Shown here: positions 2,959 through 57,138 of the stretch, piece by piece
Numbering within the stretch: the stretch's first letter is position 1
Layout of the letters: each line of letters starts with the position of its first letter
Sequence record: NC_054903.1
DNA from: Enterobacteria phage GiZh
Strand: one strand, 5' to 3'
DNA length: 64,000 nt
The notes under the pieces: generated by a model
Told to the model about the DNA's origin: nothing
What the model saw: the letters and a program-made list of their open reading frames with translations, nothing else
The model's database searches: none
Made by a program: the position numbers and the translations under genes

Positions 2959-2984
2959 TTTGTGTTCCTCATGTTATGTCAGTA

Positions 2985-5079: not shown

Positions 5080-7176
5080 TTATCCTTGAACGAACTTGTA
5101 AGGCATGTTTGTAATATCTATGCAAGACGCAATAATTCCAAGAGATGATTCTACTTTTTGTTTAACATTTGATGAAACAAATGATGCAAAGTCAACTCTG
5201 TCTTCTATTTCAATATCACCTGTCATTGCAACTACTTCGCCGGTTTCCATTAAATGGTCTCCGTCATAGATTACCGATTCGGTGAGTTCTTCGGTGGTCA
5301 TAACTTCAGCTTGAATGAGTTTTGTATTATTAGACGTGGTTCCGTCATTATTAGAAGCATCAGTTATTTTATTAACTTTGACCATCAATCCGCGCGGTAG
5401 AATAACTTCAGCTTCTGTTGCTATTCCGAGATTTCCTGGATATACAACATTAACTTTATGAGCTCCATCAATTGCCCATCCTATTTGAACTTTAACGTAT
5501 TCAGGATTTTCTTTATACGCTCTTATTTCGTTTGGATTAATAGTTATTCCTTCTTCATTTTTATCAACTGTCAATTCATTACGAGCTTCTGGTTCTAAAA
5601 GACCAATACCAGCATGTGTAATTCCAAAACGTCCAAAAATGATAGGAGTTAAAGAAGTAGATACAAAATTTCTGAAATAGAACACTTTATTTTTAACTAG
5701 TGCTTCGTATATAGGAGCAGTCATGCTTTGAGCACGATAAACTGTAATGCCTTCTGGTATACGGTCACCATTTTCAAAAGCTGAATCTAAGTTATTTATA
5801 GCAGATTCAATTTCTTTTTCACTCATTACATCATATCGTTCTGGATTGTAGCGTCCTAAAAGAAGATTATTGATGTCAGTATATCCTGAACCGCAATACT
5901 CTCTAATGCCACGCTTTTGTGATGGAGTATATTTAGAACCATCACGGGCAATAGTAATATCAATCATTGGACCTGCACCAATTCCAGAGAAACTATAAAT
6001 CATTCTTTTGAGGAATTTAGTTTTTGTCGCGTTCCAGGAATTTTTAGTTATTTCTTCCCAGACTTCATCTGGCTGTCCTTTACGTGTTTTATTATGTTTA
6101 TCAAGCCAATTATCTTTATATTCTTCAAAGAATTGATTAACAGCTGCTGCGTATTTCTCTAAACATTTTATTGAAGTAGTTGGTTCATTTTTAATCGCAT
6201 TAAGAATTACATCTTTAATTTTTTCAGAAACTTCATTAACCTCACTTTTTGAAAAGAATTTATAGTCATAATGAAGTTCATCTGCAGTTCCTTCAGCAAT
6301 AATTTTTGCTGCCTTAGTTTTAGAAGCTAATGAATTAATTCCAAGCTTCATTTCTTCTGCTTCGGGAATTAAAGGAGCCGTAGCAGGTTTATTGAAATTA
6401 GCTGCGGTAGATTCATACTTTTGGAATAATTCACTTTCAAATCTAGAAGATTCTAATGATTGACTTTGTGCAATTGCTCTACGGGAAATTTTAACTTTAA
6501 CGATTACAGCTTGGTCAGAACGTTTATCGTTTTCTTGCGCAATAGATGCAGCAATTGCCTCATTTTTAGTTACTTGAGCTCCAGTATCTTTATTGATATA
6601 AACATCACCAACCTTTGATTCAACTTTAGTAAAGAGCTCGGTACTAATTTCAGGAACTCCTGGAATGTCTTCTAATGATACATTTTTGCGATGTATAAGA
6701 ATATATGCATACTTTTTATCGTAATCCCAGAGTTCCTTAAGAAGGACGTATCTACCACCTGAACGACTACGGATAAGTCTATCAGCAATAAGTTGAATTT
6801 GTCGAGCTTGACCAGCAGTTTTAGACTTAAGAATACGGAGCATACAGGCATCAATTTTATACTGACGCATCGTTTGCATCGCAACAGTAAAAACTGAATT
6901 GATGTAATTAATTGGGCTTGGACCGAGACCTTTTAATTTAGCAATTGAACCTTTAGCAGTTAATGTAAAAGGAACAATATGCATCATTTTATCGCCCATC
7001 TTTAAATCGCGATTAGTATCACCTCCAGATGTATAGGTACACAAACGAAAGCCTGGTTGTTCAATTGCGTCATCAACATGAACTGAAAAAATTTGCGGTA
7101 TTTTCTTCTTTGGATTTAAGTTTGTAATCGGAAGAGTAGTATCTTCGTCAAATAATTCTGTAATGAGTTCCATCAT
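5080..7176 (-). CDS. Alt-like ADP-ribosyltransferase, paralogue B (698 aa)
   Basis: N-terminal 230 aa and C-terminal ART region align with paralogue A (MELITELFD..., YRAQ, FVSTSL, EAEVILPRG); central region divergent; TATAAATA late promoter upstream. Confidence 0.75.
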   Translation of the reverse strand: MMELITELFDEDTTLPITNLNPKKKIPQIFSVHVDDAIEQPGFRLCTYTSGGDTNRDLKMGDKMMHIVPFTLTAKGSIAKLKGLGPSPINYINSVFTVAMQTMRQYKIDACMLRILKSKTAGQARQIQLIADRLIRSRSGGRYVLLKELWDYDKKYAYILIHRKNVSLEDIPGVPEISTELFTKVESKVGDVYINKDTGAQVTKNEAIAASIAQENDKRSDQAVIVKVKISRRAIAQSQSLESSRFESELFQKYESTAANFNKPATAPLIPEAEEMKLGINSLASKTKAAKIIAEGTADELHYDYKFFSKSEVNEVSEKIKDVILNAIKNEPTTSIKCLEKYAAAVNQFFEEYKDNWLDKHNKTRKGQPDEVWEEITKNSWNATKTKFLKRMIYSFSGIGAGPMIDITIARDGSKYTPSQKRGIREYCGSGYTDINNLLLGRYNPERYDVMSEKEIESAINNLDSAFENGDRIPEGITVYRAQSMTAPIYEALVKNKVFYFRNFVSTSLTPIIFGRFGITHAGIGLLEPEARNELTVDKNEEGITINPNEIRAYKENPEYVKVQIGWAIDGAHKVNVVYPGNLGIATEAEVILPRGLMVKVNKITDASNNDGTTSNNTKLIQAEVMTTEELTESVIYDGDHLMETGEVVAMTGDIEIEDRVDFASFVSSNVKQKVESSLGIIASCIDITNMPYKFVQG

Positions 7177-15476: not shown

Positions 15477-16869
<1,393 letters not shown>

Positions 16870-16873
<4 letters not shown>

Positions 16874-17106
16874 TTATTTTTCTCAACCAATGATTGAATA
16901 TAATCATGTAGGTCTTTAGATGCTTTACCCCACTTATTTTGATATTCATTTTTGAGATTAGCACGTGATTGAGCTAATAAAACATCATTAGTTGGAGGTA
17001 AAGATTCTAACCGCTGAATCTGGCGTCCGTAAATCATTGCAGCCATCTCGGATTCATAAATCAATCCTTTGAGATGTTCAAATTGATGCCATGAAATCAT
17101 TTGCAT
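16870..17106 (-). CDS. Hypothetical protein (78 aa)
   Basis: ORF in pseT-alc interval. Confidence 0.5.
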
Positions 17107-17396
17107 TTATCCTCTTTTAACTCTTGACGATAATAACATATCATAGTTTTCTGATCATGTACATATCGTTTTACATCATTAAGCCAAATACGAAATTCCT
17201 GAGAATCTTCAAATGGCATACCGACCCAAGCTTTACCATCAATAACTTTAACTTGCCAAGATAGTTTAGCTTCGTCATATGACTTTATTTGCACAGGCCA
17301 ATTAGGATGAACTGTTTCTTTCTTTACTTCTAGAGGCTTTGTCGAACAACCAACTAGAAGACCAATAGATAATATTACTGCTGATAGTTTAATCAT
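17097..17396 (-). CDS. Predicted lipoprotein (99 aa)
   Basis: N-terminal signal peptide MIKLSAVILSIGLLVGC with lipobox L-V-G-C. Confidence 0.55.
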   Translation of the reverse strand: MIKLSAVILSIGLLVGCSTKPLEVKKETVHPNWPVQIKSYDEAKLSWQVKVIDGKAWVGMPFEDSQEFRIWLNDVKRYVHDQKTMICYYRQELKEDKCK

Positions 17397-17746
17397 TTAG
17401 AAAGGTCCTGGATGTCTTCTGCGAACTTGTTGAAGGAGTTGTTAATTTGTTTTTCAACCAATCCTGGCTTACGAGCCACCACATCCGCCTTCTTTGCATC
17501 TTTGCGCAGTTTTTCATTTTCACGCTCAATAGCAGCGATTGCCTCACGATTTTTAGTATTCATCGCATCAATATAATTATACTGAATTCGCAAATTATTT
17601 AATGCTAAAGCGTTTTCATTGGCTGTTTTTGTAATTTCAGTAACTGATGTTTCTAATCTTTCTACCTTATTTTTTAAAATAATAGATGTTCCGCCCAATG
17701 CTATTACAATTAATAGCAAACCTGCTGTCGTATTACTTAATTGCAT
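17393..17746 (-). CDS. Predicted membrane-anchored coiled-coil protein (117 aa)
   Basis: N-terminal hydrophobic helix (AGLLLIVIALGGTSIIL) followed by charged helical region. Confidence 0.5.
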   Translation of the reverse strand: MQLSNTTAGLLLIVIALGGTSIILKNKVERLETSVTEITKTANENALALNNLRIQYNYIDAMNTKNREAIAAIERENEKLRKDAKKADVVARKPGLVEKQINNSFNKFAEDIQDLSK

Positions 17747-18243
17747 AAAGTTTTAATAACCTCTATAATATCGTCTTGAGAAAGACCGTTAATTAAAATA
17801 TGATGTTCAGCTGGAGATTTAGAAATTTTAAAGCATGCCTCAACATCTTCTGCCATATCCGATGCACTACGATTTGGATTACTAATTCCAAGACGATGCT
17901 TTCCAGTCAAAGGATTAACGATGATATAGCATTTGCAGCTATTGATATGAACATTGGGCTGAGTCTGATTAATGAACACTTCGCAATCATACTTAGCGAG
18001 TTGATTTTCTAAAAAGACTTTCATCTCTTCAACCGCATCAGGAAGCATATCACGGGCTTGCTCAAGACGACGATTTCGATATTCTTTAATGGTCGTTTTC
18101 CGCTTGACTTGCTTAGCTAAATCTTTCTTAAGATCGGTGATATATCCAACTCGACGATTTCCTTTGAATACAGAAATCCCATCTGTAGTATCACCGTATG
18201 CTTCAACGACCATTTCAGTAGTAATAAGCTGCAAATCCATCAT
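17737..18243 (-). CDS. alc: Alc (inhibitor of host transcription on cytosine DNA)
   Basis: 167-168 aa as in T4 Alc; position between pseT cluster and rnlA. Confidence 0.8.
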   Translation of the reverse strand: MMDLQLITTEMVVEAYGDTTDGISVFKGNRRVGYITDLKKDLAKQVKRKTTIKEYRNRRLEQARDMLPDAVEEMKVFLENQLAKYDCEVFINQTQPNVHINSCKCYIIVNPLTGKHRLGISNPNRSASDMAEDVEACFKISKSPAEHHILINGLSQDDIIEVIKTLCN

Positions 18244-18263
18244 AAAGTCCTCATGTTATGTCA

Positions 18264-18302
18264 GTAAGACTACTATAACACAACACGAGGGACTTGTAAA
18301 CA
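18264..18302 (-). promoter_or_regulatory. T4 early-type promoter and leader upstream of alc
   Basis: gtaaac at 18296-18301 (rc TTTAC on minus), -10 TATAGT-like; 54-bp cassette nearly identical to 2966..3019. Confidence 0.5.
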
Positions 18303-18304
18303 GC

Positions 18305-19892
<1,588 letters not shown>

Positions 19893-19919
19893 AATAAAAT
19901 GGGCCTTGCGGCCCACTCC

Positions 19920-21098
19920 TTAAAAGTATTTTTTAAAACTCATCATAACTTTATCATCAACATCATTATCAATCTGTGCAACAAGGTAAGATGACAGTTC
20001 TACTTCTTGTGGCGCGGATTGAACATTATCAGAATTAAGATATTCACGAATCCAAGGATATGGATGTTTAACCGGAGCATCGGTAATTGGGCATGGAAGA
20101 CCGCACTGTTTCATACGAGATACAGTTAAGTAATCAATAAAGCTCCACATGCTATTTGTATTTAATCCAGGAACATCACCATCTTTAAATAAATGAACTG
20201 CCCAGTCTTTTTCCTGGCGGTTAACTTCCATGAAAATATCAACTGCTTCTTGTTCACACTCTTTAGCAATTTTAACCCATTCATCGCCGTCTGTTCCAAG
20301 CTGAAGCTGACGAATAATATATTGGGTGCCTTTAAGGTGAAGCTGTTCATCGCGTGCAATGAACTTCATAATCTTGGCATTACCTTCCATGATTTCCATG
20401 TTCTTATGGAAGTTAAATGTACATGCGAAAGATACATAAAAACGAATAGCTTCCAATGCATTGATTACATGCAAACAGAGGTAAAGAGATTTCATTAGCT
20501 CACGCTTCCAATATGTCTCATGCTCAATAGCATCTTCAATAACGTCTTCGTCTGCATTAATTTCTTTTTGGTATTCGATATCAGCTTTAGCGTTTTCCAA
20601 ATAACGAGTTTTAATCAGAACATCATCATAATAACGTCCAATGGATTCAGCACGTTTCATAATAGCTTCATCTAATACAATTTCATCAAATACCTTCGAT
20701 GGATCAGTATAAAGATTTCGCATGATATGAGTATATGAACGACTGTGAATGGTTTCACTAAAAGTCCATGTAGCAACCCATGTATCAAGGCTTGGGTCTG
20801 AAATCAATGACATAAGTACAGCAGACGGTGCACGACCCTGAATGCTATCTAGAAGTGATTGATACTTCAGATTATTAGTAAAAATATTCTGCTGATATTG
20901 AGGAAGCTTATTAAACTGTGCAGCATCCATCATTAAGTTTACTTCTTCAGGACGCCAGAAAAATGACAACTGCTTTTCGGTTAAATCTTCAAAAACTTTA
21001 TGACGTTGAATATCATAACGCGCAATACCAAGACCTGAACCAAAAAACATAGGTTCTTTTAAAACATCAACTGGATTTGTATTAAAAACTGTGCTCAT
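19920..21098 (-). CDS. nrdB: Ribonucleotide reductase small subunit (class Ia), uninterrupted
   Basis: 392 aa contiguous ORF of the expected size; no intron-sized interruption. Confidence 0.9.
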   Translation of the reverse strand: MSTVFNTNPVDVLKEPMFFGSGLGIARYDIQRHKVFEDLTEKQLSFFWRPEEVNLMMDAAQFNKLPQYQQNIFTNNLKYQSLLDSIQGRAPSAVLMSLISDPSLDTWVATWTFSETIHSRSYTHIMRNLYTDPSKVFDEIVLDEAIMKRAESIGRYYDDVLIKTRYLENAKADIEYQKEINADEDVIEDAIEHETYWKRELMKSLYLCLHVINALEAIRFYVSFACTFNFHKNMEIMEGNAKIMKFIARDEQLHLKGTQYIIRQLQLGTDGDEWVKIAKECEQEAVDIFMEVNRQEKDWAVHLFKDGDVPGLNTNSMWSFIDYLTVSRMKQCGLPCPITDAPVKHPYPWIREYLNSDNVQSAPQEVELSSYLVAQIDNDVDDKVMMSFKKYF

Positions 21099-21149
21099 AA
21101 ATTTTCCGCTTAGTTAATAGTTGGTGACTCGTCCGTGAGTCAAATTATA

Positions 21150-23414
21150 TCATAATTTACAGGATGAACAATCTTCAGCTTTTGGAGTTTCTATTTCATA
21201 ATCATCAGTACCAGAACCATCACGGGTATTATGATAATAGAAATTTTTTCCGCCAAAATACCAAAAATACAAAAGGTCATCAATCATTATTGACATTGGA
21301 ACCTTGCCTTTAGGGAAGATTTGGGGGTCATAGTATGTATTCGCCGAAGCTGATTGACAAACCCATTTCAGCATAATAGCTACCTGCGTAAGATAAGGTT
21401 TATTACCTTTCTTAGCTAATTTCCATGTATAATCATAAAGGTCTATGTTATGCTCAATATTGGGCACGACTTGATTAAAGGAGCCCTCTTTTGATTCTTT
21501 AACAGAGACTGGTCCACGTGGAGGCTCGATACCGTTTGTACTGTTAGAAACTTGGGAAGATGACTCACATGGCATAAGTGCTGATAATGTGCTATTACGG
21601 ATGCCAAAGAGCTTAAGGTCTTCCCGCAGCGACGACCAGTCACAAACGTATTTTGGAGCTGCGATTTGGTCAATCTTTTTATTGTACCAGTCGATAGGTA
21701 ATTCGCCTCGAGACCAACGAGTGTCTGAATAATATTCGCAAGGTCCTTTTTCTTTGGCGAGCTTAATGGATGCTTTAATGAGTCCATACTGTAATCTCTC
21801 AAATAGTTCATGTGTTAAATCGTTAGCATCTTCATAAGAAGCAAAGTTACTTGCCAGCCAAGCTGCATAGTTAGTAACACCTACACCAAGGTTTCGACGC
21901 TTTTTAGCTTTTTCTGCTTCAGGAACTGGATATCCTTGGTAATCCAAAAGATTATCAAGAGCACGAACTTGAACTTCTGCTAATTCATTAATTTTATCTT
22001 GGTCTTGCCAATCGAAGTTATCCAGCACAAATGCAGATAACGTGCACAATCCAATTTCAGCATCAGGACTATTCACATCATTTGTTGGAATAGCAATTTC
22101 ACAGCACAAGTTACTCTGACGAATAGGTGCCTTTTCACGAATAAACGGAGTGTAGTTATTCGTATTATCAATGAACTGCACATAAATCCTTGCTGTTCCT
22201 GAACGTTCAGTCATGAGCAATTCAAATAGTTCACGGGCTTTAATACGCTTTTTGCGAATATTAGGGTCTTTTTCTGCTGCTTCGTATAATTCACGGAAAC
22301 GGTCTTGGTCTTTAAAATAAGAATAATAAAGCTCTCCACCCATTTCGTGTGGACTGAACAAAGTAATGTAATCGTTCTTTCCGAATCGTTCCATCATCAA
22401 ATCATTCAGTTGAACACCATAATCCATATGACGGATACGGTTTTCTTCTACGCCTTTGTTATTTTTCAAAACGAGAAGATTTTCAACTTCCAAATGCCAA
22501 ATAGGATAATAAGCAGTAGCAGCGCCGCCACGAATTCCACCCTGTGAACATGATTTAACTGCAGTCTGAAAATGTTTCCAAAAAGGAATAACACCAGTAT
22601 GACGTACTTCACCCATGCCAATCTTAGAACCTTCGGCACGAATCATACCAACGTTAATACCAATTCCAGCACGTTTGGAGATATATTCAACAATTGAAGC
22701 GGAAGCCTTGTTGATAGACTTTAATGAATCACCTGCCTCAATAACAACGCATGAACTAAACTGTCTAGTCGGAGTACGACAACCAGCCATAATAGGAGTT
22801 GGCAGTGAAATCTGTCGAGTAGATACTGCTTCATAAAAACGGATAACATGTTTTAATCTATCAACAGGTTCATCTTGATGCAGTGCCATTCCAATAGCCA
22901 TAAATGCAAACTGTGGAGTTTCATAAATTTGACCAGTGGTTTTATCTTTAACTAGATATTTTTCTTTTAATTGCATCGCCCCGGAATAAGTAAATTCCAT
23001 ATCCCGTTCGTGCTTAATTTTTGATTCTAAAAATGTAATTTCTTCTGCTGAATATTTTGACAATAATTCAGGGTCGTATTTACCTTCATTTACGCAATAA
23101 GAAATATGGTCAATAAATGAACGTGGTTCATATTGTCCGTAAACATGCTTACGAAGAGCGAACATTAAACAACGTGCAGCTACATATTGATAATCAGGCT
23201 CTTCAACCGAAATAGAATTCGCAGCAGCCTTAATGACAATAGTCTGAATATCATCAGTTGTCATTCCATCACGGAGATAAGATTTAATATTTTCATATAA
23301 TTCATAAGGATCTACTGATGTTCCTTCAGCTGCCCAAGATAAAACTTTAATAATTTTTTGTGGGTCAAAGCTCTGAGAAACACCACTACTTTTGATAACA
23401 TTAATTAATTGCAT
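21150..23414 (-). CDS. nrdA: Ribonucleotide reductase large subunit (class Ia)
   Basis: 754 aa as in T4 NrdA; active-site NLCCEIA and C-terminal CSSCKL cysteine pair. Confidence 0.95.
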   Translation of the reverse strand: MQLINVIKSSGVSQSFDPQKIIKVLSWAAEGTSVDPYELYENIKSYLRDGMTTDDIQTIVIKAAANSISVEEPDYQYVAARCLMFALRKHVYGQYEPRSFIDHISYCVNEGKYDPELLSKYSAEEITFLESKIKHERDMEFTYSGAMQLKEKYLVKDKTTGQIYETPQFAFMAIGMALHQDEPVDRLKHVIRFYEAVSTRQISLPTPIMAGCRTPTRQFSSCVVIEAGDSLKSINKASASIVEYISKRAGIGINVGMIRAEGSKIGMGEVRHTGVIPFWKHFQTAVKSCSQGGIRGGAATAYYPIWHLEVENLLVLKNNKGVEENRIRHMDYGVQLNDLMMERFGKNDYITLFSPHEMGGELYYSYFKDQDRFRELYEAAEKDPNIRKKRIKARELFELLMTERSGTARIYVQFIDNTNNYTPFIREKAPIRQSNLCCEIAIPTNDVNSPDAEIGLCTLSAFVLDNFDWQDQDKINELAEVQVRALDNLLDYQGYPVPEAEKAKKRRNLGVGVTNYAAWLASNFASYEDANDLTHELFERLQYGLIKASIKLAKEKGPCEYYSDTRWSRGELPIDWYNKKIDQIAAPKYVCDWSSLREDLKLFGIRNSTLSALMPCESSSQVSNSTNGIEPPRGPVSVKESKEGSFNQVVPNIEHNIDLYDYTWKLAKKGNKPYLTQVAIMLKWVCQSASANTYYDPQIFPKGKVPMSIMIDDLLYFWYFGGKNFYYHNTRDGSGTDDYEIETPKAEDCSSCKL

Positions 23415-23731
23415 AAGTCCTCAACTTGAAAATCGTCTTTAAACAATCGGTTAACTATATGAGCTATTATATCACCATGACACGGCTTTGGTTTACATGT
23501 GCATCCTAGCCTCATTCCACGTAAAGGCTCTAAATGTGCTTTAGTTATTTCTCCGGATTTAATTCGACGTATAAAATCTTTTTTGAATAATTCAATGGCA
23601 GCCTCCCGGCTGCCAGCATCTTTACCGACGTAATTTCCCCAAAATGTACCACGGTGAATATTAACATCAAAGTCGGATTTATATTTATTCACTACCCGGC
23701 ATAGACGGCCCACGCTGGAATAATTCGTCAT
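23405..23731 (-). CDS. Hypothetical protein (108 aa)
   Basis: ORF overlapping nrdA start; Cys/His-containing ([12 protein letters not shown]). Confidence 0.5.
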
Positions 23732-23960
23732 ATTGTTTTTCCGTTAATACAGTAATATCATAGTAACAATCGGAAGAAGTTTTAACTGTGGAAATTTTAT
23801 TATCAAAATACTCACGAGTCATTTTATGAGTATAGTATTTTTTACCATAAATGGTAATAGGCTGTTCTGGTCCTGGAACTTCTAACTCGCTTGGGTTAGG
23901 AAGTGTAAAAAGAACAACGCCAGAAGTATCTTTAAATCGTAAAATCATATATCCTCGCAA
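23685..23960 (-). CDS. Hypothetical protein (91 aa)
   Basis: ORF between td and nrdA. Confidence 0.5.
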
Positions 23961-23968
23961 TAATAAAA

Positions 23969-24829
23969 TTACACCGCCATCTTTCCTTTAATAGGAGGGT
24001 GTGATTCATAGTTGTTAAGAACAAAATTATGTGGCTTTGCGAATTGACTCAGCCAAAATACCTGCGATTCTGTGTCCCATTCATCAAATTCATCTGGAAA
24101 TTTTAATTGCAATTCGCATAAATCCATAGGTTCACGACGTAAAATTTCTTTACATTGTTCTACGTGATTCATATAGATATGAGTATTACCACCAGAAAAT
24201 ATCAAATCTCCGGGAATAAGATTACACATCTTAGCTACAATATGCGTCAAGGCAGCGTACGAGGCAATGTTGAATGGCAAGCCCAAGAAAACATCTACAC
24301 TTCTTTGGTACCACTGCAAATCCAAATAGCCATTACGCACATTAAACTGATAGAACATATGACAAGGCGGTAATGCCATATATTTAAGTTCAGCTGGATT
24401 CCACGCAGAAACAATTTGACGCCTATCATTCGGCAGTTTTTTAATACGATCAATAACTTCTACAATTTGGTCTACACCGCCAAAATCACGCCATTGTTTT
24501 CCATAAATTGGACCAAGTTCACCGCTATGGTATCCTAAATCTTTTGCCTGATTTTCGTAATTTTCATCCCAAACTGTTTTGCCTTGGATTAATGAATCAT
24601 GCTGAATTAATCGTAAATCATTGACATTTGTGCTTCCTGACAAAAACCATATTAACTCAGCAATGCATGCATTCCAGGCGAGCTTTTTAGTTGTTACTGC
24701 AGGAAAACCTTTGGTTAAATCCCAACGCAATTTAGTACCGAACAAAGCAATTGTTCCTGTGCCTGTTCGGTCATCGGTTTCATAACCATTTTCAAAAATG
24801 TCTTTAATTAAATCTTGGTATTGTTTCAT
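23969..24829 (-). CDS. td: Thymidylate synthase, uninterrupted
   Basis: 286 aa contiguous; active-site PCH ([12 protein letters not shown]); no group I intron present. Confidence 0.95.
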
Positions 24830-24873
24830 TTAGTACCTTATATAAATTATAATACATTTTATGAAGCTAATAA

Positions 24874-25233
24874 TTAATACGGTTTAGCATCAAATTTTCT
24901 CTCAATTTCAGGCGTGAAATATAATTCTTTACCGCGTTTGGAAAAACGACCAATAATATGATAATTATTCTCATCAAACGTGATATTGCCGATATCCATA
25001 GCTTTCAACCAAATATCGATATTTCTGTCAAGCTTTATATCAAAATTCCAATACGGAGAACTATTACCAAAAATACTGCAAGCGGATTCAGTGAAACAAC
25101 TGCTATAAATCTTGTCTTTAGGAACTACTAATTGATAGACACCTTTAATAAACTGAGGACCCTGCCACTTTGGCTGTTTCGCGTCTTTTTCTAATAAAAT
25201 AGGGTAATAATTAAAATTCATATTTTCCGCCAC
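24874..25233 (-). CDS. Hypothetical protein (119 aa) between frd and td
   Basis: Complete ORF with no recognisable motif, in the interval where T4 frd and td abut as I recall. Confidence 0.5.
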   Translation of the reverse strand: MAENMNFNYYPILLEKDAKQPKWQGPQFIKGVYQLVVPKDKIYSSCFTESACSIFGNSSPYWNFDIKLDRNIDIWLKAMDIGNITFDENNYHIIGRFSKRGKELYFTPEIERKFDAKPY

Positions 25234-25241
25234 GCGTTATT

Positions 25242-26068
<827 letters not shown>

Positions 26069-26079
26069 ATTATCTCCTA

Positions 26080-26412
26080 TTAAAAAGGATCAGGAACATA
26101 TCCGCTAGCTTTAATCATTTTAATTAACGTTAACATTCCTTTGTTAACTGCTCGTGAGATTTCATCAAAAACTTCATCACTAAAAAGTTCTAACACGCCC
26201 TTCTGAACTTTTAATTTACAGCCAATAATTTCTTCATCGCCTATAGTAAATTCATTACCACCAATTCCACCGAAAAACTTAATTACGCCAGTTAACTGTC
26301 TTCCACGAGAATATGGATCATGTGATAAAGTAATATGAGTCACCCCAGGTACAGTTTTAAATTGACAGCGAATGTTTACTTGAGCAATTCCAGTTACATG
26401 AATGTCAGACAT
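26080..26412 (-). CDS. Hypothetical protein (110 aa)
   Basis: ORF in 32-frd interval. Confidence 0.5.
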   Translation of the reverse strand: MSDIHVTGIAQVNIRCQFKTVPGVTHITLSHDPYSRGRQLTGVIKFFGGIGGNEFTIGDEEIIGCKLKVQKGVLELFSDEVFDEISRAVNKGMLTLIKMIKASGYVPDPF

Positions 26413-26422
26413 AATATTTTCC

Positions 26423-26665
26423 TCAAACAGACTTTTTCACAGTTTTCCAATCAGCTTTAAACTGATCAACATCAGAATGGTAAATCCAGAATCCTGCGCT
26501 TTCTCCATCTTCATAAAGAGGACATCCATCGCATTCATCTTCCCATCCCATATCACGCAAAAGACGTTCAGCTTTTTCAACAAGTTCAGAATCTTTACCG
26601 ATGATATTAAAATACCATTTACCTCTAACTTCTGAATCTTTGATGCTTTGGCGTTGTAATCTCAT
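26423..26665 (-). CDS. Hypothetical protein (80 aa)
   Basis: ORF with early-type promoter (gtaaac 26717-26722) upstream. Confidence 0.5.
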   Translation of the reverse strand: MRLQRQSIKDSEVRGKWYFNIIGKDSELVEKAERLLRDMGWEDECDGCPLYEDGESAGFWIYHSDVDQFKADWKTVKKSV

Positions 26666-26725
26666 TTTATTCTCCTCAGTAGTTGATAGGGTAATAGTAT
26701 CACACTACTACCCTGTTGTAAACAA

Positions 26726-27028
26726 TTATTTTTGAATTTTATCGAGCCACTTACCAAGCTTAATCATTTCTTTAGTAGCCTTTTCCATACTTCTGAACTT
26801 AACCAATAGAGGATAGGTATCGACACCCATAACTAAACTGGTTACAAGACTGTGTTCACCCACAAGCCATAACGAATACGTTTGAATATCGAGCCCGTAA
26901 TTTCTGTCTTTATGGACCCGTACACCCATCACTTCAAATTTCTCACTAGCTTTTTCTACCGCATCCAGGAAATCATCTTTAGTCATATTAGGCCTTAAAA
27001 GTTTTTCGCAAAAGTTCAATGATTTCAT
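26726..27028 (-). CDS. Hypothetical protein (100 aa)
   Basis: ORF in 32-frd interval. Confidence 0.5.
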   Translation of the reverse strand: MKSLNFCEKLLRPNMTKDDFLDAVEKASEKFEVMGVRVHKDRNYGLDIQTYSLWLVGEHSLVTSLVMGVDTYPLLVKFRSMEKATKEMIKLGKWLDKIQK

Positions 27029-36793: not shown

Positions 36794-39700
36794 ATGGCTA
36801 CTTTAAAACAAATACAATTTAAAAGAAGCAAAACCGCAGGTGCACGTCCTGCTGCTTCAGTATTAGCCGAAGGTGAATTGGCTATAAACTTAAAAGATAG
36901 AACAATTTTTACTAAAGATGATTCAGGAAATATCATCGATTTAAGCATTTCTGCTGGTGGTAATATCAGTGGTAATATTACTCAAACTGGTGATTATACA
37001 CAGACTGGAAAATTTAATTTAATTGGTCCGCAAATTGTAGAAAGCGGTGGATATATTGAGTTTAATTATCGTACTACTGGAAGTGGGGCTTGGTCCGGTC
37101 AACATACTGCGAAAGCTCCAATTTTTGTAGATTTAAGCTCAGCTACTTCCACATCTGAATATAATCCTATAATTAAACAGCGCTTTAAAGATGGAACTTT
37201 TTCATTAGGTACTTTAGTTTCTGAAGGTTCGTTGAAGATTCATTATATCAATGAATCTGGCGATTCGAAATATTGGACGTTTCGACGTGACGGCGGATTT
37301 ACTGTTGACGGTGGAGGTTTAGGAGTATCAGGAGGTAGTATAACTACATCTGGAAATATTGCAGCTCTCGGAAATATTACTTCGCCTCAGATTAATACTA
37401 AAAATATTATTTTAGATACAAAAGCATTTGGACAATACGATTCGCAGTCATTAGTTCAATATGTTTATCCTGGAACCGGTGAAGAAAACGGTATAAACTA
37501 TCTTCGTAAAGTTCGAGCTAAATCAGGCGGAACTATTTACCATGAAATCGCTTCAGCTCAAACCGGTAAAAATGATGAAATTTCTTGGTGGACCGGAAAT
37601 ACACTTACTACTAAATTAATGGGTCTTCGTAATGATGGCGCAATGGTATTACGTCGTTCACTTGCTATTGGCACAATTACCACTGACGAAAATACTAACA
37701 ACTATGGTTCTCCTACTCCAATGGGAGAAAGATATATTGCTTTGGGCGATGCTGCCACTGGTTTAAAATACATTAAGCAGGGCGTTTATGATTTAGTAGG
37801 TAATTGGAATTCTGTTGCGTCTATTACTCCTGATAGTTTCCGTAGTACTCGTAAAGCGATATTTGGACGTTCAGAAGACCAAGGCGGAACCTGGACAATG
37901 CCTGGAACGAACGCTGCCTTTTTATCAGTTCAAACACAGGCTGATGAAAACACTGCTGGAGACGGCCAGACGCATATTGGCTATAACTCAGGCGGAAAAA
38001 TGAACCACTATTTCCGTGGTAAAGGCAAAACTAATATTAATACTCAGGAAGGTATGGAAGTTAATCCGGGTATTTTGAAATTGGTAACTGGCTCTAATAA
38101 TGTAATGTTTTATGCTGATGGCGGTATTACATCTGTTAAGCAGCTTTCAATATATAATGGCATATATTTAGCAGCTAATAATTCTACTGCTGGGCTAACA
38201 TTCGCTCCAACTACTACAATTGATGGCACTAAGCAAATTTTGTGGGAAGGCGGTACTCGTGCTGGTCAGAATAAAAGCTATGTAACTGTTAAAGCATGGG
38301 GTAATTCATTTAACGCATCTGGCGATCGTAATCGTGAAACGGTTTTTGAAGTAGCTGATGGACAAGGATATTATTTTTATTCACAGCGTGTGGCTCCAAG
38401 TGGCTCTGAAACTACTGGGCCTGTTGTAACCCAGTTCAATGGACAAGTTAATGCTAGAGGAAGTATTATTACTGACGGAAGTTTTAAAGTTAATGGATTA
38501 AGCACTTTAGTCGGTAATGTTACCATGTCTAATGGTTTGTTTGTCCAAGGTGGTTCTTCTATTACTGGACAAGTAAAAATTGGTGGAACTGCTGATGCAT
38601 TAAGAATTTGGAATGCCGAATACGGTGCTATTTTCCGTCGCTCAGAAACAGCATTACATATTATCCCGACTCCTAAAGATGCCGGTGAAAGTGGTGGAAT
38701 AAGTAATCTCCGCCCACTTAGTATTAGTCTTAATAATGGTATGGTACAAATGCGCCATTCTGTTACGTTAGGCGATGATGGCGCTGGCGGTAATATGATT
38801 ACTGTGGACAACGATACCAAACTTGTTGTTGTTACTAGTCATAGTCGTATTTCTCCTAATTACCGTATGCAGGTAGGACAAGCAGCTTATATTGATGCTG
38901 AATGTACTGACACCGTTCGCCCGGCTGGCGCAGGGTCTTTTGCTTCACAAAATAATGAAAACGTTCGTGCTCCGTTCTATATGAATATTAATCGCACAGA
39001 TACAAGTACTTACGTTCCTATTTTAAAACAACGTTATGTTCAAGGAAATAGCTGTTATTCTTTAGGTACTTTAATAAATGGCGGTAACTTCAGAGTTCAT
39101 TATCATGAAGGTGGAGACGGAAGTTCAACAGGCGCAATTATAAAAGATTTAGGCTGGGAATTTACACGTTCTGGTGATTTTATATCTCCTAAGCGCATTT
39201 CTGCTGGGGGTTCAGTTTATTTAGGTACAGACGGTAACATTACTGGTGGTTCTGGTAATTTTGCCAACTTAAATAGTACAATTGAATCACTTAAAACTGA
39301 TATTGTTTCAAGTTATCCTATTGGAGCTCCGATTCCTTGGCCTACTGATACACCTCCTGAAGGTTATGCCATAATGGAAGGTCAAACATTTGATGTTGGC
39401 TTGTATCCTAAGTTAGCTGCGGTGTATCCTTCCGGCTCTCTGCCTGATATGCGCGGGCAAACTATCAAGGGTAAACCATCTGGGCGTGCTGTATTAAGTA
39501 CAGAAGCAGACGGTGTTAAGTCACATAGTCATAGTGCAAGTGCATCAAGCACGGATTTGGGTACTAAGACCACATCAAGCTTTGACTATGGTACTAAGAC
39601 GACAAGTAGTTTCGACTATGGTACTAAGACCAGTAATAATACTGGTGCTCATACGCATAGTTTGAGCGGTTCCACAAACACCGCCGGTGCGCACAGCCAC

Positions 39701-40015
39701 ACAAGCGCTCTTTATGCGGGAAGTAACAACTCTCCTGGTACTGGTTCTATAAGAGGATCCGCCGGTGGTGGTAATACGCTTGGAACTTCTTCTTCTGGGG
39801 CACATTCGCACTCTATATCTGGTACTGCTGCAAGCGCAGGCGCTCACGCGCATACTGTTGGTATTGGTGCTCATACCCATACTGTAGGTATCGGTGCTCA
39901 TACCCACACGGTAGCAATTGGCTCGCATGGTCATACTATCACTGTAAATAGTACAGGTAATACAGAAAACACGGTTAAAAACATTGCTTTTAACTATATT
40001 GTTCGTTTAGCATAA
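36794..40015 (+). CDS. 37: Long tail fibre distal subunit / receptor-binding protein gp37
   Basis: 1073 aa; C-terminal Gly/His-rich HxH boxes ([16 protein letters not shown]...) and C-terminus ...[11 protein letters not shown] typical of T4-type gp37. Confidence 0.9.
39853..39940 (+). repeat. In-frame tandem His-box repeats within gene 37
   Basis: About three copies of a 27-nt unit ggtgctcatacccatactgtaggtatc encoding GAHTHTVGI; a second repeat ([10 protein letters not shown] x2-3) lies at 39560..39640. Confidence 0.8.
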
Positions 40016-44125: not shown

Positions 44126-44275
44126 TTACTGCATGACAGTTATCACAGTCATGATAACACGTTGAATTCCGAACGCAAGAAGACCTCCTGCTATGGCTGG
44201 AACAACGCCTAAACCCGCCAGTAAAATGCTACCAGATACTAATGCAGCGCTTGTAATACCAATGAATGGACTCAT
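44126..44275 (-). CDS. Small hydrophobic glycine-zipper peptide (49 aa)
   Basis: Unlisted ORF MSPFIGITSAALVSGSILLAGLGVVPAIAGGLLAFGIQ...; ATGA overlap with gene 52 stop. Confidence 0.4.
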   Translation of the reverse strand: MSPFIGITSAALVSGSILLAGLGVVPAIAGGLLAFGIQRVIMTVITVMQ

Positions 44276-45600
44276 TTGATTTCCTCTAAATCTTTGGTGT
44301 ATTCGGTAACTACATCAGTAGTTTTCCAATATTCGTTTTCTTCTTTTTTAGCTTTAGCTTCTTCAGCAAGTTTCTTTGCTTCATCGGAAGTCATATGAAA
44401 AATATTCATTCCAACTAGTTTATCAACATAAGAAGAATACATATCGATTTTCGAAAGTTCTTCGGTCAGTTCTTTACGAGTTTTACCCTGTACAACAATT
44501 TCACCTGAAATTACTTTCTTAATGAAATGTGCCTTGGCAAAGGCTAAACGAAAAGCTGACTCAGTTTCTTTGATTTTGTTATCAATTCGTTTTTGGACAT
44601 AAGTTTTACGAACTTCAACAAAGTCTTTAATTAAATCGACTACGTTATCGTAAACTTGTAGTTTTCCTTTCTCATTAATAACCGTAATATTCTGAGAACG
44701 ACGCTCAATCAACCCAAAGTCTTTCATAATTTTTGCATGGCGTTCTTCTTCATTATCGCTCAAAGAATATTCTTTACGGAATTTAACTTTAAAGCCAAAA
44801 CCATGCTCACCACAAGCATCATCCCATGTAATGAAGCCTTTATCTTCAAGTGGGTCTAAGATTTTACTCACATAAGTTTCACGATCATACTTATACGGAA
44901 TCTCAGTGATATGCATTTGAGTTCGTGAAGTAAACTTATATGTTCCACGAATTTCATATTGCCCATCAATTTCAACGACTTCACCACGAAATTCTGGGAA
45001 TTCTACCTTCGGTTTAGTTACTTTCTTTCCTTGAAGAGCTTGCAGTACAGCTTTCTTAACAGAAGAAACACTATGAGGAAGAATGTAAGTTGCATAACCA
45101 GTTGCAATACCGGAAACGCCATTAAGAAGAACAGTAGGAATAATAGGCAAATAGAAAGCAGGCGGAATGTGTTCTTTATCTTGATGTACCGGAGCATATT
45201 CAGTATCTTTATATACGTTATAGAAATTTTTACTTACACGAGCAAAAATATAACGACTTGCTGCTGCTTTTTGGACGGTACGAGAACCAAAGTTTCCTTG
45301 ACCATCTAACAGAGGAAAATTATTATTCCAAGTGTTAGCCATCAAAGCACCTGCGTCTTGCGCAGAGTTTTCACCATGATGATATCCAAGGTCCGCTACA
45401 CCACCTGCAATAGAAGCGAGTTTGTGAAATTTATCTTTATTTCCTCGTGCCAAATCAAGAGCTCGAGCAATAACAAATCGTTGAACTGGCTTAAATCCGT
45501 CAATCATGTTTGGGATAGCACGATTTTCAACCGTGTACATAGCATAAGCCAATGCTTCATTATCAATGATACTTTTTAAATCGCGATTATTCAGTTGCAT
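44272..45600 (-). CDS. 52: DNA topoisomerase II medium subunit gp52
   Basis: 442 aa as in T4 gp52; GyrA-like cleavage-religation domain. Confidence 0.9.
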   Translation of the reverse strand: MQLNNRDLKSIIDNEALAYAMYTVENRAIPNMIDGFKPVQRFVIARALDLARGNKDKFHKLASIAGGVADLGYHHGENSAQDAGALMANTWNNNFPLLDGQGNFGSRTVQKAAASRYIFARVSKNFYNVYKDTEYAPVHQDKEHIPPAFYLPIIPTVLLNGVSGIATGYATYILPHSVSSVKKAVLQALQGKKVTKPKVEFPEFRGEVVEIDGQYEIRGTYKFTSRTQMHITEIPYKYDRETYVSKILDPLEDKGFITWDDACGEHGFGFKVKFRKEYSLSDNEEERHAKIMKDFGLIERRSQNITVINEKGKLQVYDNVVDLIKDFVEVRKTYVQKRIDNKIKETESAFRLAFAKAHFIKKVISGEIVVQGKTRKELTEELSKIDMYSSYVDKLVGMNIFHMTSDEAKKLAEEAKAKKEENEYWKTTDVVTEYTKDLEEIK

Positions 45601-51728: not shown

Positions 51729-52001
51729 TTAATTCATATTACGTTTAATAACTTCAGCAACTTCTAGTAGTTCATCTTTAGTTGCGGTGTCGGATTGAAT
51801 TTTATCTCTAATATCTTTAAAGCGGTTTTTAAATTCTTCGGCTTCTCCCATATCGAAAAAGCGTTGAATGATTCTATATTCTCGATGAACTGCTTTATCA
51901 AAAAGTTCTAAATTTACTCTATATGATTTCATTTCAATATCCTCATTTGCCCAATTAATTATACCACATCCTTGTGTAAAGTAAACTACTGGCTCATCCA
52001 T
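51729..52001 (-). CDS. Hypothetical protein (90 aa)
   Basis: ORF between gene 39 and rIIA. Confidence 0.5.
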
Positions 52002-53806
52002 TCTTTACGAAGGTCAGCATTATCTCCCATGAGCATTTCAAAAAGCTCTTTCCAATTCTCAGGAAGTTTAACAACATCATATACTGGATTTTGAATCATC
52101 TCACGATATTCAGATTTTTCCAAAGAGCCAAGTCCCTTAATATAACGGATGCTATGTTTAGGTAGAGCATCTTTGGCACTCTCATATTCAGCGACTGTAT
52201 AAAACCATTCTTGTTTTTTACCGACCTGAGCGATGATTACAGGAGTTTTGACAAAGCGAATTCGTCCTTGCTCAAACAATTCTGGCCAATTACTAAAAAA
52301 TCCGAGCAGAGAAGGATAAATGCTTCCTAGACCATCATGGTCAGCATCAGTCATAATAGCAATATTGCGATAATTCAAGTTTTCAGCTTTTTCACCAAGA
52401 ACTAGACCAGTGATTGCGCAAATATCAAATAGTTCTTTGTTTTTAAGCATATCGGCATATGACATACCCCAGCTATTAAGAACTTTACCGCGCAATGGAT
52501 AACCACCATGAAGTTCTTTATCGCGAACATCAATAAGATATCCGATAGCTGAATCACCCTCAGTCAAGAACAATGTAGTGTCAGCATCTTTACCGCAAAG
52601 ATTCGCTTTAATATGTTTATGAACCTTAGCTTTAGAAGCCTTTTTAGCTGCTTTAGTTTCTGCTGCTTTTTCTGCCGCCAATTTACGAGCCAAAGCAGCT
52701 TCAATAATCGGCATCAGAATTGCTTCATTATTTAGAATAGCGCGTGAAATCTTTTTAGCGTCAAGTTGAATATGACTACGAATTTCGCCAAATGGAGAAG
52801 TCAAACGCTCTTTAGTTTGAGAATCAAATCGCATGTTTTTCATATCACGAACAAACATAACGATAGTCAAACATTCTTTAACGCGTGCTTTAGTTACATC
52901 AATTTTGAACTTACGTTTGATTTGTGGAATAAGGTCTTCACAAATATCATCCATAACACAGTCAATGTGATGGCCACCATTCTTAGTATGAATGTTATTG
53001 ACGTATGTTAATTGACGAAAACCATCCGGTGAACGACCAACCGCAATAGAACAATTTTCTTGTTCTTGAACGATAGCATGTTCATCATATTGGCGTGCGT
53101 ATTTCTTAAAATTACCCTGAACCTTTTTACCATTAAAGGTAAATTGAATATCAGGATAAACAACAGCAAGTGTTTGGAGACGATCTAGTGTAATGTCAAG
53201 ATAAACTTGGGACAGCTCATTAGTTTCAAATGACATAAAATCAGGAATGAAAGTAACACGGGTTCCTTTCCATTTTCCAGGAATATCTTCCCATGATTTA
53301 TTTTCCATGCCGTTTGAACAACGAACTACAATATTATTTTGACCATCACCAGTTTCACCGACAAACATCACAGAAAAAATGTTTGTCAAACTAGAACCAA
53401 CACCATTCATACCACCGGTGACGCGTTCTTTATCATCACCGAAGTTACCACCTGCTTTTGGAATAGTCCACGCAGCAACAGGACCAGGAATTTCTTCACC
53501 GGTAGGTGTTTTAACCATCGCCTGTGGAATACCACGACCGTTATCTTCAACTGTTACTTGATTATTTTTAATAGTAACATTAATTTTATTCGCGAATTTA
53601 AACTTAGTACGAATACCTTCATCTACTGAGTTATCGATAATTTCATCAATAAGCTTAACAAGACCAGGTACATACTGAACACTTTCCCATTTACCAAACA
53701 GAAAGCGCTCATGCATTTCATTAGCTGAAGAGCCAATGTACATGCCGCTACGCTTTTTGATATGTTCAATATCGCTCAGAATTTTAATTTCATTCTTAAT
53801 CATCAC
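51986..53806 (-). CDS. 39: DNA topoisomerase II large subunit, unsplit gene 39 (ATPase plus Toprim)
   Basis: 606 aa; GHKL ATPase motifs (EDNGRGIP, GGMNGVGSS) and complete Toprim (LFLTEGDSA ... IMTDADHDG) in one ORF; C-terminal part corresponds to T4 gp60. Confidence 0.9.
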   Translation of the reverse strand: MMIKNEIKILSDIEHIKKRSGMYIGSSANEMHERFLFGKWESVQYVPGLVKLIDEIIDNSVDEGIRTKFKFANKINVTIKNNQVTVEDNGRGIPQAMVKTPTGEEIPGPVAAWTIPKAGGNFGDDKERVTGGMNGVGSSLTNIFSVMFVGETGDGQNNIVVRCSNGMENKSWEDIPGKWKGTRVTFIPDFMSFETNELSQVYLDITLDRLQTLAVVYPDIQFTFNGKKVQGNFKKYARQYDEHAIVQEQENCSIAVGRSPDGFRQLTYVNNIHTKNGGHHIDCVMDDICEDLIPQIKRKFKIDVTKARVKECLTIVMFVRDMKNMRFDSQTKERLTSPFGEIRSHIQLDAKKISRAILNNEAILMPIIEAALARKLAAEKAAETKAAKKASKAKVHKHIKANLCGKDADTTLFLTEGDSAIGYLIDVRDKELHGGYPLRGKVLNSWGMSYADMLKNKELFDICAITGLVLGEKAENLNYRNIAIMTDADHDGLGSIYPSLLGFFSNWPELFEQGRIRFVKTPVIIAQVGKKQEWFYTVAEYESAKDALPKHSIRYIKGLGSLEKSEYREMIQNPVYDVVKLPENWKELFEMLMGDNADLRKEWMSQ

Positions 53807-53855
53807 TTATCCTCGTTTGGTTTCGGGAATATTATACTCCGGTAATCATAAAGCT

Positions 53856-53873
53856 AAAGGCCCGAAGGCCTTT
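53856..53873. other. Hairpin aaaggcc-cgaa-ggccttt (second copy)
   Basis: Identical to hairpin at 7210..7227; between lipoprotein ORF stop and gene 39 start. Confidence 0.5.
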
Positions 53874-54142
53874 TATTTAAAACGAATAGTTGAATCCTTA
53901 AAGAACAGCCCAGAACATACTGTTCCTTCTACTTTCTGCCCGGTAGGTCCAATAGCACGAAATCCAGTATGTTGGAAATCATTTTCAGAACAACCGAACC
54001 AGTTATATCCAGTGATTTCAATATTAGTAAAACCGCTTGAAGATAAAACTTTGGTTGCATTATCAGCATCAGTACATCCTACTAAAGACACTGTTAATAC
54101 TAATGCTGCAATAGAACGATTAATATATTTCATAATTTTCAC
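53873..54142 (-). CDS. Predicted lipoprotein (89 aa)
   Basis: Signal peptide with lipobox SLVGC (MKIMKYINRSIAALVLTVSLVGC). Confidence 0.55.
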   Translation of the reverse strand: MKIMKYINRSIAALVLTVSLVGCTDADNATKVLSSSGFTNIEITGYNWFGCSENDFQHTGFRAIGPTGQKVEGTVCSGLFFKDSTIRFK

Positions 54143-54510
54143 TTAAATTTAATGGCTTGAAGAAGACTAATAATTCTCAAGCGACTTCTTTCATCTTTAA
54201 CTGTAAAAGAAAGAGGGTCACCAGATTTCATAGTAATAGTACATTCAAAATCAAAATCTTCGGAAACTTCTTTGAAGAAGTCAAATTCTTCATCATAAAT
54301 TAGAACATTACTCTGACAACTATGAAGAATTTTTCCATCATTTCCAGATGCTGTACTAATCATTGTAACATTATGACCTTTCATATCTTCAATGATAAAT
54401 TCACTAGTCAATATTACAGCATTAATAGAACTATTCCTATTACTAGCAGAAAGTAGATATTTCTGTTCTTCACCTTCACGAATGCAATATTTCTTACCGA
54501 TTTTAAACAT
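54139..54510 (-). CDS. Hypothetical protein (123 aa)
   Basis: ORF upstream of the lipoprotein gene. Confidence 0.5.
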   Translation of the reverse strand: MFKIGKKYCIREGEEQKYLLSASNRNSSINAVILTSEFIIEDMKGHNVTMISTASGNDGKILHSCQSNVLIYDEEFDFFKEVSEDFDFECTITMKSGDPLSFTVKDERSRLRIISLLQAIKFK

Positions 54511-55725: not shown

Positions 55726-56145
55726 TTATGCTAAAGCTGCTTCGCACCATTTTTTAATTTGGAATTCAGGAACTACCATGAACTGGCCTGCAAAAACAAT
55801 ATTGTAGAGCTTGACACCATCTTCTACCCAACGGTCCGAAATAAAACCAGCGACTTGATTCGTTGTCCATGGAGTTCCATCTGTTGCCGCCGCAATTGTG
55901 AATTTATGGTCTTTTACAACTAAAACTGAAGAACAAAGTTTCCATTTAAATGCGCGTTCTTCTGGCTCAATGAACTGACTTGAGACATAACCAATGTTAC
56001 CATCAGCGTCACGAACTTTAACCTCGTTACGACCAAAAACTGGATCACTTACAGAAAGAACTTCAACCAGCTTTCCTGCAACTTTAGAACGAGAAGCAAC
56101 GGATACATATACGTAATCACCAGTAGAGAGATTTACAATATTCAT
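55726..56145 (-). CDS. Paralogue family member 1 (139 aa)
   Basis: Shares N-terminal SVASRSKVAGKLVEV and C-terminal WVEDGVKLYNIVFAGQFMVVPE with the next two ORFs. Confidence 0.55.
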   Translation of the reverse strand: MNIVNLSTGDYVYVSVASRSKVAGKLVEVLSVSDPVFGRNEVKVRDADGNIGYVSSQFIEPEERAFKWKLCSSVLVVKDHKFTIAAATDGTPWTTNQVAGFISDRWVEDGVKLYNIVFAGQFMVVPEFQIKKWCEAALA

Positions 56146-56154: not shown

Positions 56155-56673
56155 TTAAGCTTTACGAGGAGAAGCATAACGAGTGATTTCAGATTCTTCA
56201 ACAACCCGGAAGTCACCTAAGAATACGATATTGTAGAGCTTTTCACCATCTTCAACCCATTGGTCTGTGATGAAGCCACACATCCTATCAGTTTTACTTG
56301 GACCAGCGAAATCATCAATATAATCGAATTCTTCATCAGTTACAAATTCAACGCCTTTACACAACGCCCATTTAAATTGTGTATTAGACTCAGTGGATTC
56401 AACTTCTTCAACAGAAGCAAAATGAGAGCTAACACGAGTTTCCAGAAATTTAGGACTTACGTAAGCGTACTGAGTTTCAGTTTTTCCAGAACTAGGAATG
56501 ATTCGAACTTTAACTTCTTTAACACGACCAGTACCATTAGTACGAAGTCCTACCACTTCAACTAGACGACCTGCAGCTTTAGAACGAGATGCAGACGATA
56601 CACGCTTAATTTCACCGATAGTAATCATAATTTTTCTCTCTTTGTTGTTAAGATTTATACTCCGCAGGACCAT
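56155..56673 (-). CDS. Paralogue family member 2 (172 aa), possibly MotB-like
   Basis: SSASRSKAAGRLVEV ... QWVEDGEKLYNIVFLGDFRVVEE; size near T4 MotB but identity unverified. Confidence 0.5.
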   Translation of the reverse strand: MVLRSINLNNKERKIMITIGEIKRVSSASRSKAAGRLVEVVGLRTNGTGRVKEVKVRIIPSSGKTETQYAYVSPKFLETRVSSHFASVEEVESTESNTQFKWALCKGVEFVTDEEFDYIDDFAGPSKTDRMCGFITDQWVEDGEKLYNIVFLGDFRVVEESEITRYASPRKA

Positions 56674-56700: not shown

Positions 56701-57138
56701 CTAGCTTACACGAACATTAATCACTGCGCTGCGAGGAACTACAGAGTACTCTCCAGCATGAACTACGTTCAGAAGTTCAACACCATCTTCAATCCACTGA
56801 TCAGTCACCCATCCACCCACAGGATTCGCGAATGGACGACGAATATAAACTGCCTTACACAGCAGATCAGTTGGATCTTCAGGTTTTTCAATTTCTGTCA
56901 ATAGACTAAAATCTTTTTCATAAATAATAAGCGGTGATACCATTCCATAATAGTTTCTAATTTCAATATACATCATACCGATAAGAATTCCGCTATTAAC
57001 ACTAATAACAGTAAAAGGATATCCGCCAGTTAAACCAAGAAGTTCACAAAACTTATTATGAGCTGTATTAGACAGTACCGAAAAATTCTTAATTTCATCA
57101 AATTTTTTCAATTGATAAACAGCATTATTTTTAATCAT
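56701..57138 (-). CDS. Paralogue family member 3 (145 aa)
   Basis: C-terminal DQWIEDGVELLNVVHAGEYSVVPRS shared with members 1 and 2; N-terminus divergent. Confidence 0.5.
   Translation of the reverse strand: MIKNNAVYQLKKFDEIKNFSVLSNTAHNKFCELLGLTGGYPFTVISVNSGILIGMMYIEIRNYYGMVSPLIIYEKDFSLLTEIEKPEDPTDLLCKAVYIRRPFANPVGGWVTDQWIEDGVELLNVVHAGEYSVVPRSAVINVRVS

Follow-up and report, generated by a model that had tools for sequence, protein, structure and literature searches.

A one-piece topoisomerase gene 39 and an empty MobA-element site in Enterobacteria phage GiZh

We analyzed a 64,000-nucleotide stretch of the Enterobacteria phage GiZh genome (NC_054903.1; hereafter, the window) and found, with very little room for doubt, that the open reading frame (ORF) at 51986..53803 is the standard one-piece Tequatrovirus gene 39, encoding the large subunit of DNA topoisomerase II. 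The absence of the T4 split, of the mobA insertion and of the gene 60 bypass, which had been predicted from the sequence, was borne out by BLASTN alignment with T4 and by a MobA probe that was negative in the window while its controls were recovered. The importance of this result goes little beyond correct annotation: the locus should be recorded as gene 39, DNA topoisomerase II large subunit, 605 aa, starting at ATG 53803 on the minus strand, and gene 60, mobA and a bypass are not to be sought in the GiZh gene 39 annotation.

Reading frame, upstream signals and product of gene 39

In the program-made ORF list, an uninterrupted ORF of 606 codons extended over 51986..53806 on the minus strand, counted from GTG 53806, and the peptide quoted in the original prediction, IMTDADHDGLGSIYPSLLGFFSNW, was found within its translation. 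Given the base composition of the window, the probability of a stop-free run of 606 codons is ~5e-21, so the ORF did not arise by chance. No internal stop or frameshift was found in gene 39 by BLASTP and BLASTN against T4. The GC skew was negative throughout the region, consistent with minus-strand coding, and the plus-strand ORFs overlapping gene 39 were short and overlapped real genes.

The second codon of this ORF is ATG 53803, which is preceded by a GAGG Shine-Dalgarno sequence at a distance of 7 nt (vs 4 nt for GTG 53806), and the matching ATG is the annotated gp39 start in T4, T2, T6 and RB51. Because of this spacing and these annotated starts, translation almost certainly begins at ATG 53803, giving a product of 605 aa rather than 606. 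The interval originally predicted for a single 606-aa ORF (51986-53806), free of stops and frameshifts, was thus correct, while the real product is 605 aa long; the strand, which had not been named, is the minus strand.

The 121 nt upstream of gene 39 were 100% identical to T4 5305-5425. The order of elements in this region is the 39.1 stop, the hairpin, the GCTTTA box, the 12-nt spacer, TATAAT, GAGG and ATG (Table 1). Judging by its layout, the GCTTTA-12-TATAAT element is a candidate T4 middle (MotA-dependent) promoter. A scan for the sigma-70 consensus around gene 39 returned 8 promoter-like sites vs 12.6 expected from shuffles, and this element was not listed among them. A terminator scan of the same surroundings called none, and the hairpin after 39.1 is without a T-run of 5 in 8. 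Downstream of gene 39, a promoter-like TTTACT-16-TGgTATAAT sequence lies after the TAG stop and before rIIA.1.

The upstream gene 39.1 (window 53873-54142, minus strand) encodes 89 aa when read mechanically from a GTG, and is annotated as 65 aa in T4 and 86 aa in RB51. The N-terminus of gp39.1 resembles a lipoprotein signal, with a putative LVGC lipobox read from the sequence.

Table 1. Positions of gene 39, its domains and signals, and related loci in the window (residues in the 605-aa numbering)
Feature	Position	Strand	Details
Gene 39, one-piece GyrB-like large subunit of T-even DNA topoisomerase II	51986..53803	-	605 aa
TAG stop of gene 39	51988-51986	-	
Toprim-associated C-terminal domain	51992..52249	-	aa 519-604; PF16898, 30.6 bits vs cut-off 29
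Toprim domain	52328..52576	-	aa 410-492
Empty MobA-element site	52331..52384	-	gene nt 1420-1473, codons E474-G491 (ENLNYRNIAIMTDADHDG)
Transducer (Pfam DNA_gyraseB)	52652..53056	-	aa 250-384; PF00204, 51.1 bits vs cut-off 27
GHKL ATPase core (Pfam HATPase_c)	53357..53665	-	aa 47-149; PF02518, 38.3 bits vs cut-off 26.4
Shine-Dalgarno sequence GAGG	53811..53814	-	same as T4
Promoter-like element	53831..53854	-	GCTTTA (53854-53849), 12-nt spacer, TATAAT (53836-53831)
Hairpin AAAGGCC-UUCG-GGCCUUU	53856..53873	-	directly after 39.1 stop, upstream of gene 39; same in T4
Gene 52, GyrA-like partner subunit	44272..45600	-	442 aa, intact
td (thymidylate synthase)	23969..24829	-	single 286-aa ORF
nrdB	19920..21098	-	single 392-aa ORF

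The gene 39 product matched PHROG 543 ('DNA topoisomerase II large subunit') with an E-value of 1e-295, and the Pfam families HATPase_c, DNA_gyraseB and TOPRIM_C scored above their cut-offs. The GHKL motifs are present as the N-box E54-IIDN58, the G1 box D87-NGRG and the G2 box G131-MNGVG, and the QTK loop of the transducer is found at residues 329-331. The Toprim motifs comprise the catalytic E415 in EGDSA, PLRGK at 436 and the acidic cluster D486-A-D-H-D-G491. The Pfam Toprim family (PF01751) scored 16.8 bits, below its cut-off of 23.1, as this diverged phage domain usually does, and the Toprim assignment is accordingly based on the motifs and on the full-length identity to T6 gp39 rather than on this score. 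With EGDSA at 415 and DADHDG at 486 in the same ORF, the complete Toprim domain is carried on one polypeptide, and the C-terminal domain that follows corresponds to the C-terminal bulk of T4 gp60. Pfam, the motifs and BLASTP against T4 thus agreed with the predicted combination of a GHKL ATPase and a complete Toprim domain, including the gp60-encoded part, in a single ORF.

The gene 39 product, gp39, is the GyrB-like subunit of the phage type IIA topoisomerase, with an N-terminal GHKL ATPase gate, a QTK-loop transducer and a metal-binding Toprim domain. Together with gp52 it would form an A2B2 enzyme, which would use ATP to drive the passage of one duplex through a transient break in another during phage replication. 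The gene 52 block was collinear with the T4 gene 52 region, with 96.9% DNA identity.

Among structures in the PDB, chain 8ylu_C (611 residues) and five more entries matched residues 1-605 of the gene 39 product. The entry 8yo3 is an engineered T4 gp39-gp60 fusion. At gene 39 codons 326-328, the T4 reference (NC_000866) reads MRLIRQTK, while the window, T2, T6, RB51 and T4T read MRFDSQTK. Two frameshifts, -1 and +1, that compensate each other over 8 nt immediately ahead of the QTK loop account for this difference, which is confined to the T4 reference record (NP_049621.1); the 8yo3 construct was built on that sequence.

The split gene of T4 and the empty MobA-element site

Aligned with gp39 and gp60 of T4, as the original prediction had proposed, the product was collinear and gapless. 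Residues 1-473 corresponded to T4 gp39 1-473 with 98.5% identity, and residues 472-605 to T4 gp60 27-160 with 95.5% identity (BLASTP, 605-aa numbering). The element-derived extensions of the T4 proteins, namely the 43-aa C-terminal tail of gp39 (474-516) and residues 1-26 of gp60, were not found in the window protein, and the Toprim domain, which T4 divides between gp39 and gp60, is whole in the window gene.

At the DNA level, BLASTN aligned the locus with T4 in three blocks: window 54124-52386 with T4 5650-3911 (96.2%), window 52377-52332 with T4 2899-2854 (76% only), and window 52321-51700 with T4 2793-2171 (99.0%). From these blocks, both the ~1.0-kb T4 insert and the 50-nt bypass gap are missing here, as T4 ~2900-3910 (the 3' tail of 39, mobA, 60.1 and the 5' end of 60) has no window counterpart and the gap at T4 2803-2852 is absent. 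In T4, the insert starts after codon A473, and the 54-nt stretch of codons E474-G491 is replaced by a diverged element copy, 'homR', which is 76% identical. The T4 bypass gap directly follows the Gly codon: T4 reads GAT GGA TAG...(gap)...GGA TTA GGT, with the take-off codon GGA followed by TAG, whereas the window reads GAT GGT CTA GGA AGC continuously, with GGT followed by CTA.

Further remains of the element were likewise lacking in the window gene 39. We found neither a 50-nt coding gap flanked by matched GGA codons for take-off and landing, with a stop after take-off, nor an HNH endonuclease gene or remnant inserted after codon ~466-473. RNA folding at the bypass-equivalent site revealed no unusual or stable local structure (z = 0.20 vs shuffled sequence). 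An intact MobA protein (from T4T) used as a probe gave no match in the window (best E 3.5), and the same probing recovered its controls, the T4 mobA pseudogene (E 7e-133) and mobE (E 3e-22). A 'hit-and-run' scar was also considered and rejected: element-derived residues or homR-type sequence were sought in gene 39, and none were found.

Manning and Atkins (bioRxiv 10.1101/2022.08.31.505936) describe a MobA element of 1097-1106 nt, which enters the 'parental Topo2L' at nt 1399-1419, ends just after D490 or G491, and swaps 55-75 nt for its own diverged 'homR' (67-81% identical). In their account, the bypass cassette is part of the element and shields an invaded genome against renewed nicking; the MobA nick is placed ~20 nt upstream of the point at which the bypass is inserted (here a secondary source), and homing into T2 has been reported (bioRxiv 10.1101/2022.08.31.505936). 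The breakpoints between T4 and the window fit this published map exactly, with the start after A473 (nt 1419), the end after G491 and a homR identity of 76%, and the window therefore holds an uninvaded site, spanning 52331-52384. Compared with T2 over gene nt 1390-1500, around the target region at nt 1399-1473, the window sequence differed at two adjacent bases only (CGC vs CAT, R479/H479). These features suggest that the gene 39 site is a MobA-sensitive empty homing target. In T4, the MobA element splits the gene into 39 and 60 and adds the 50-nt translational bypass. In a mixed infection of GiZh with a MobA-positive phage, a nick ~20 nt upstream of the Gly491 codon (in the window, about 20 nt upstream of 52331) would be expected to lead to conversion to the split form. 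In experiments on MobA homing, the gene could serve as a naturally occurring recipient allele.

The locus has either never received the MobA element or no longer holds it. The latter case would be a secondary reversion, in which an ancestor had the element and lost it cleanly (e.g., by recombination with an uninvaded relative), so that the one-piece gene was restored. The literature contains accounts of MobA elements being lost progressively and, in Aeromonas phages, of a 'hit and run' event (bioRxiv 10.1101/2022.08.31.505936), and T-even genomes are mosaics, the window being ~97% identical to its nearest relatives (vB_EcoM-S1P5QW, TH09 and ESh33) and identical to none. However, the 54-nt segment matches the T2 type (2 nt differences) rather than the T4 homR type (76%), and the window gene has an identity profile against T4 similar to those of the T2, T6 and RB51 genes, without a local irregularity. 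There is also no trace of the element, including residues of its C-terminal or N-terminal extensions (CTE, NTE), although none would be left by a clean loss through recombination. We consider reversion improbable and retain the interpretation of a standard one-piece gene with an uninvaded site.

There is a very slim chance that either a clean secondary loss of MobA occurred or the R479 (CGC) variant, which lies ~15-20 nt upstream of the reported nick, alters MobA sensitivity. If so, the allele would be informative on the cycle of gain and loss of the bypass cassette. To our knowledge, the MobA/gene 60 cassette is the only known phage translational-bypass cassette.

Other T4 mobile-element sites and further features of the window

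The original prediction also described td and nrdB as intron-free and the phage as carrying fewer selfish elements than T4. Neither the ~1020-nt T4 td intron with I-TevI nor the ~600-nt T4 nrdB intron with I-TevIII has a counterpart in the window genes, each of which is a single ORF. In the whole-window alignment, five T4 mobile elements were without a counterpart: the nrdB intron, nrdB.1 with mobE (~700 nt, between nrdB and nrdA), the td intron, segG (~624 nt) and the mobA element. The window covers 5 of the 15 T4 endonuclease sites, and all five are empty; the other ten lie outside it. When T4 I-TevI, I-TevIII, MobE, SegG, SegF, MobA and 60.1 were used in tblastn against the window segments that do not align to T4, none gave E <0.3. 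No homing endonuclease was found among the window-specific extra ORFs, which matched only families of unknown function and a MotB-like domain (Pfam, PHROG). Both statements thus held inside the window, with no replacement endonuclease found in the segments that do not align to T4.

The assignment of td and nrdB as intron-free is based on the T4 alignment and the single ORFs. A whole-window Rfam scan for group I introns gave no match, but neither did T4's own td-nrdB stretch (18000-27000), and this negative result was not used. At the gathering threshold, Rfam fails to pick up the ORF-containing group I introns that T4 td and nrdB do carry, and its negatives are therefore unusable for calling phage genes intron-free.

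T4 has been called 'an oddity', with 15 homing endonucleases, a number unmatched by any relative (Edgell, Gibb and Belfort, PMC2988022). The empty state of the five covered sites is usual for T4 relatives, and T4 is the outlier. GiZh belongs to the large majority of Tequatrovirus phages, which are without the T4 mobile elements at the td, nrdB, nrdA/nrdB, 32/59 and 39 sites.

In nrdB, identity to T4 was 97.3% on the 3'-exon side (window 16867-20422) vs 84.0% on the 5'-exon side (20425-21098). The drop (20422/20425) falls exactly at the position of the T4 nrdB intron, next to the mobE site, and could mark the boundary of a co-conversion tract linked to MobE/I-TevIII homing in the T4 lineage.

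Several other differences from T4 were observed in the window. A 404-nt insertion (window 24832-25237) separates td from frd, genes that overlap in T4; it contains a minus-strand ORF (24874-25233) of 119 aa, which belongs to PHROG 1928 (function unknown), has no Pfam match and is not recognizable as a homing endonuclease. Two small minus-strand genes absent from T4 lie between frd and frd.1 (25823-26068 and 26080-26412); they encode 81 aa (PHROG 3183) and 110 aa (DUF7247, PHROG 3566), both from families of unknown function. A 123-aa ORF between 39.1 and 39.2 (54139-54510, minus strand) is absent from T4 and present in T6 and RB51 ('RB32ORF005c'). This ORF belongs to PHROG 622 and gave a weak match to a GoF-type family (E 6.5e-6), possibly reflecting a relationship to the N-terminal region of the neighboring goF.

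Two full-length tandem alt paralogues (RNA polymerase ADP-ribosyltransferase) of 685 and 698 aa were found at 3019-5076 and 5080-7176, respectively, both on the minus strand; T4 has one alt and the short remnants alt.-1 and alt.-2, and a pair of Alt-like genes is likewise annotated in relatives such as RB18 and Aplg8. An extra MotB-like paralogue of 139 aa (55726-56145, minus strand; Pfam motB, E 8e-20) lies beside motB and motB.1 (56155-56673 and 56701-57138). The three MotB-like proteins share a C-terminal W(V/I)EDG..L.N(I/V)V motif, and RB51 annotates the same extra copy. The central part of gene 37 (window 36943-39872) was only 75-78% identical to T4, while the gene 37 tip and gene 38 are T4-type and lie in a block 96.9% identical to T4. 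Such mosaicism is usual for the receptor-binding region.

Frequency of the one-piece gene and comparison with known topoisomerases

Gene 39 of T2, T6 and RB51 consists of 605 codons in each case, as in the window, with 96.5-97.6% nucleotide and 99.5-99.8% amino acid identity; the comparison with T2 and T6 had been proposed in the original prediction. The alignments with T2 and T6 gp39 were gapless and collinear. The window protein differs from T2 gp39 by F70L and R479H, from T6 gp39 by D173T, R479H and Q526H, and from RB51 gp39 by D173T only, and none of these one to three differences lies in a motif.

To count split and unsplit genes, we used a 161-nt junction query spanning both T4 insertion points together with the T4 insert, because a whole-gene search (492 records at ≥80% coverage) joined pieces ≤1.9 kb apart and could not separate the two states. 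The junction was contiguous in about 451 of the 492 matching phage records, and in 28 of them it was at least 99% identical over the 161-nt query. The records without a contiguous junction numbered 41, the same number as those holding the full insert. The T4 insert itself matched 43 phage records, most of them T4 isolates and a few of them relatives. Reviews likewise describe the one-piece topoisomerase gene as the rule. The one-piece gene 39 is thus already known and is the majority state, found in about nine in ten close relatives, with the T4 split as the exception, and the window is that of an ordinary Tequatrovirus.

These comparisons also bear on two further explanations. It is hardly conceivable that an error in assembly or sequencing conceals a true split or frameshift, as the contiguous junction recurs in about 451 independent phage records (in 28 of them at ≥99%), and the gene is exactly equal in length to those of T2, T6 and RB51. 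That gene 39 is intact in frame and encodes an enzymatically dead or repurposed protein is equally far-fetched, given that 3 residues differ from the active T6 gp39 and 1 from RB51, none of them in a catalytic motif. By analogy, the standard one-piece gp39 of GiZh is presumably active as an enzyme.

The closest known systems are gene 39 of T2, T6, RB51, RB32 and RB14 (parental Topo2L), the one-piece form that the RB51 annotation names 'gp60plus39'. The window shares with the T2/T6/RB51-type loci the neighbors rIIA and rIIA.1 downstream and 39.1 upstream, and in both the MobA target region is uninterrupted. In T2 and T6, gp39 and gp52 are the sole Topo II subunits, and for the two-subunit T6 enzyme, structures and relaxation activity have been reported in the paper that goes with the PDB entries above (PMC11461880).

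The gene 39 product has its domains in the order GHKL ATPase, transducer, Toprim and carries the same catalytic motifs as GyrB and ParE of bacteria and the N-terminal half of Topo II of eukaryotes, and its PDB matches included human Topo II (E 1e-59) and E. coli GyrB (E 4e-35). It is only distantly related to these proteins and is shorter, and the matches to E. coli GyrB (about 800 aa) cover query residues 5-534 only. The phage enzyme relaxes rather than supercoils DNA (PMC11461880).
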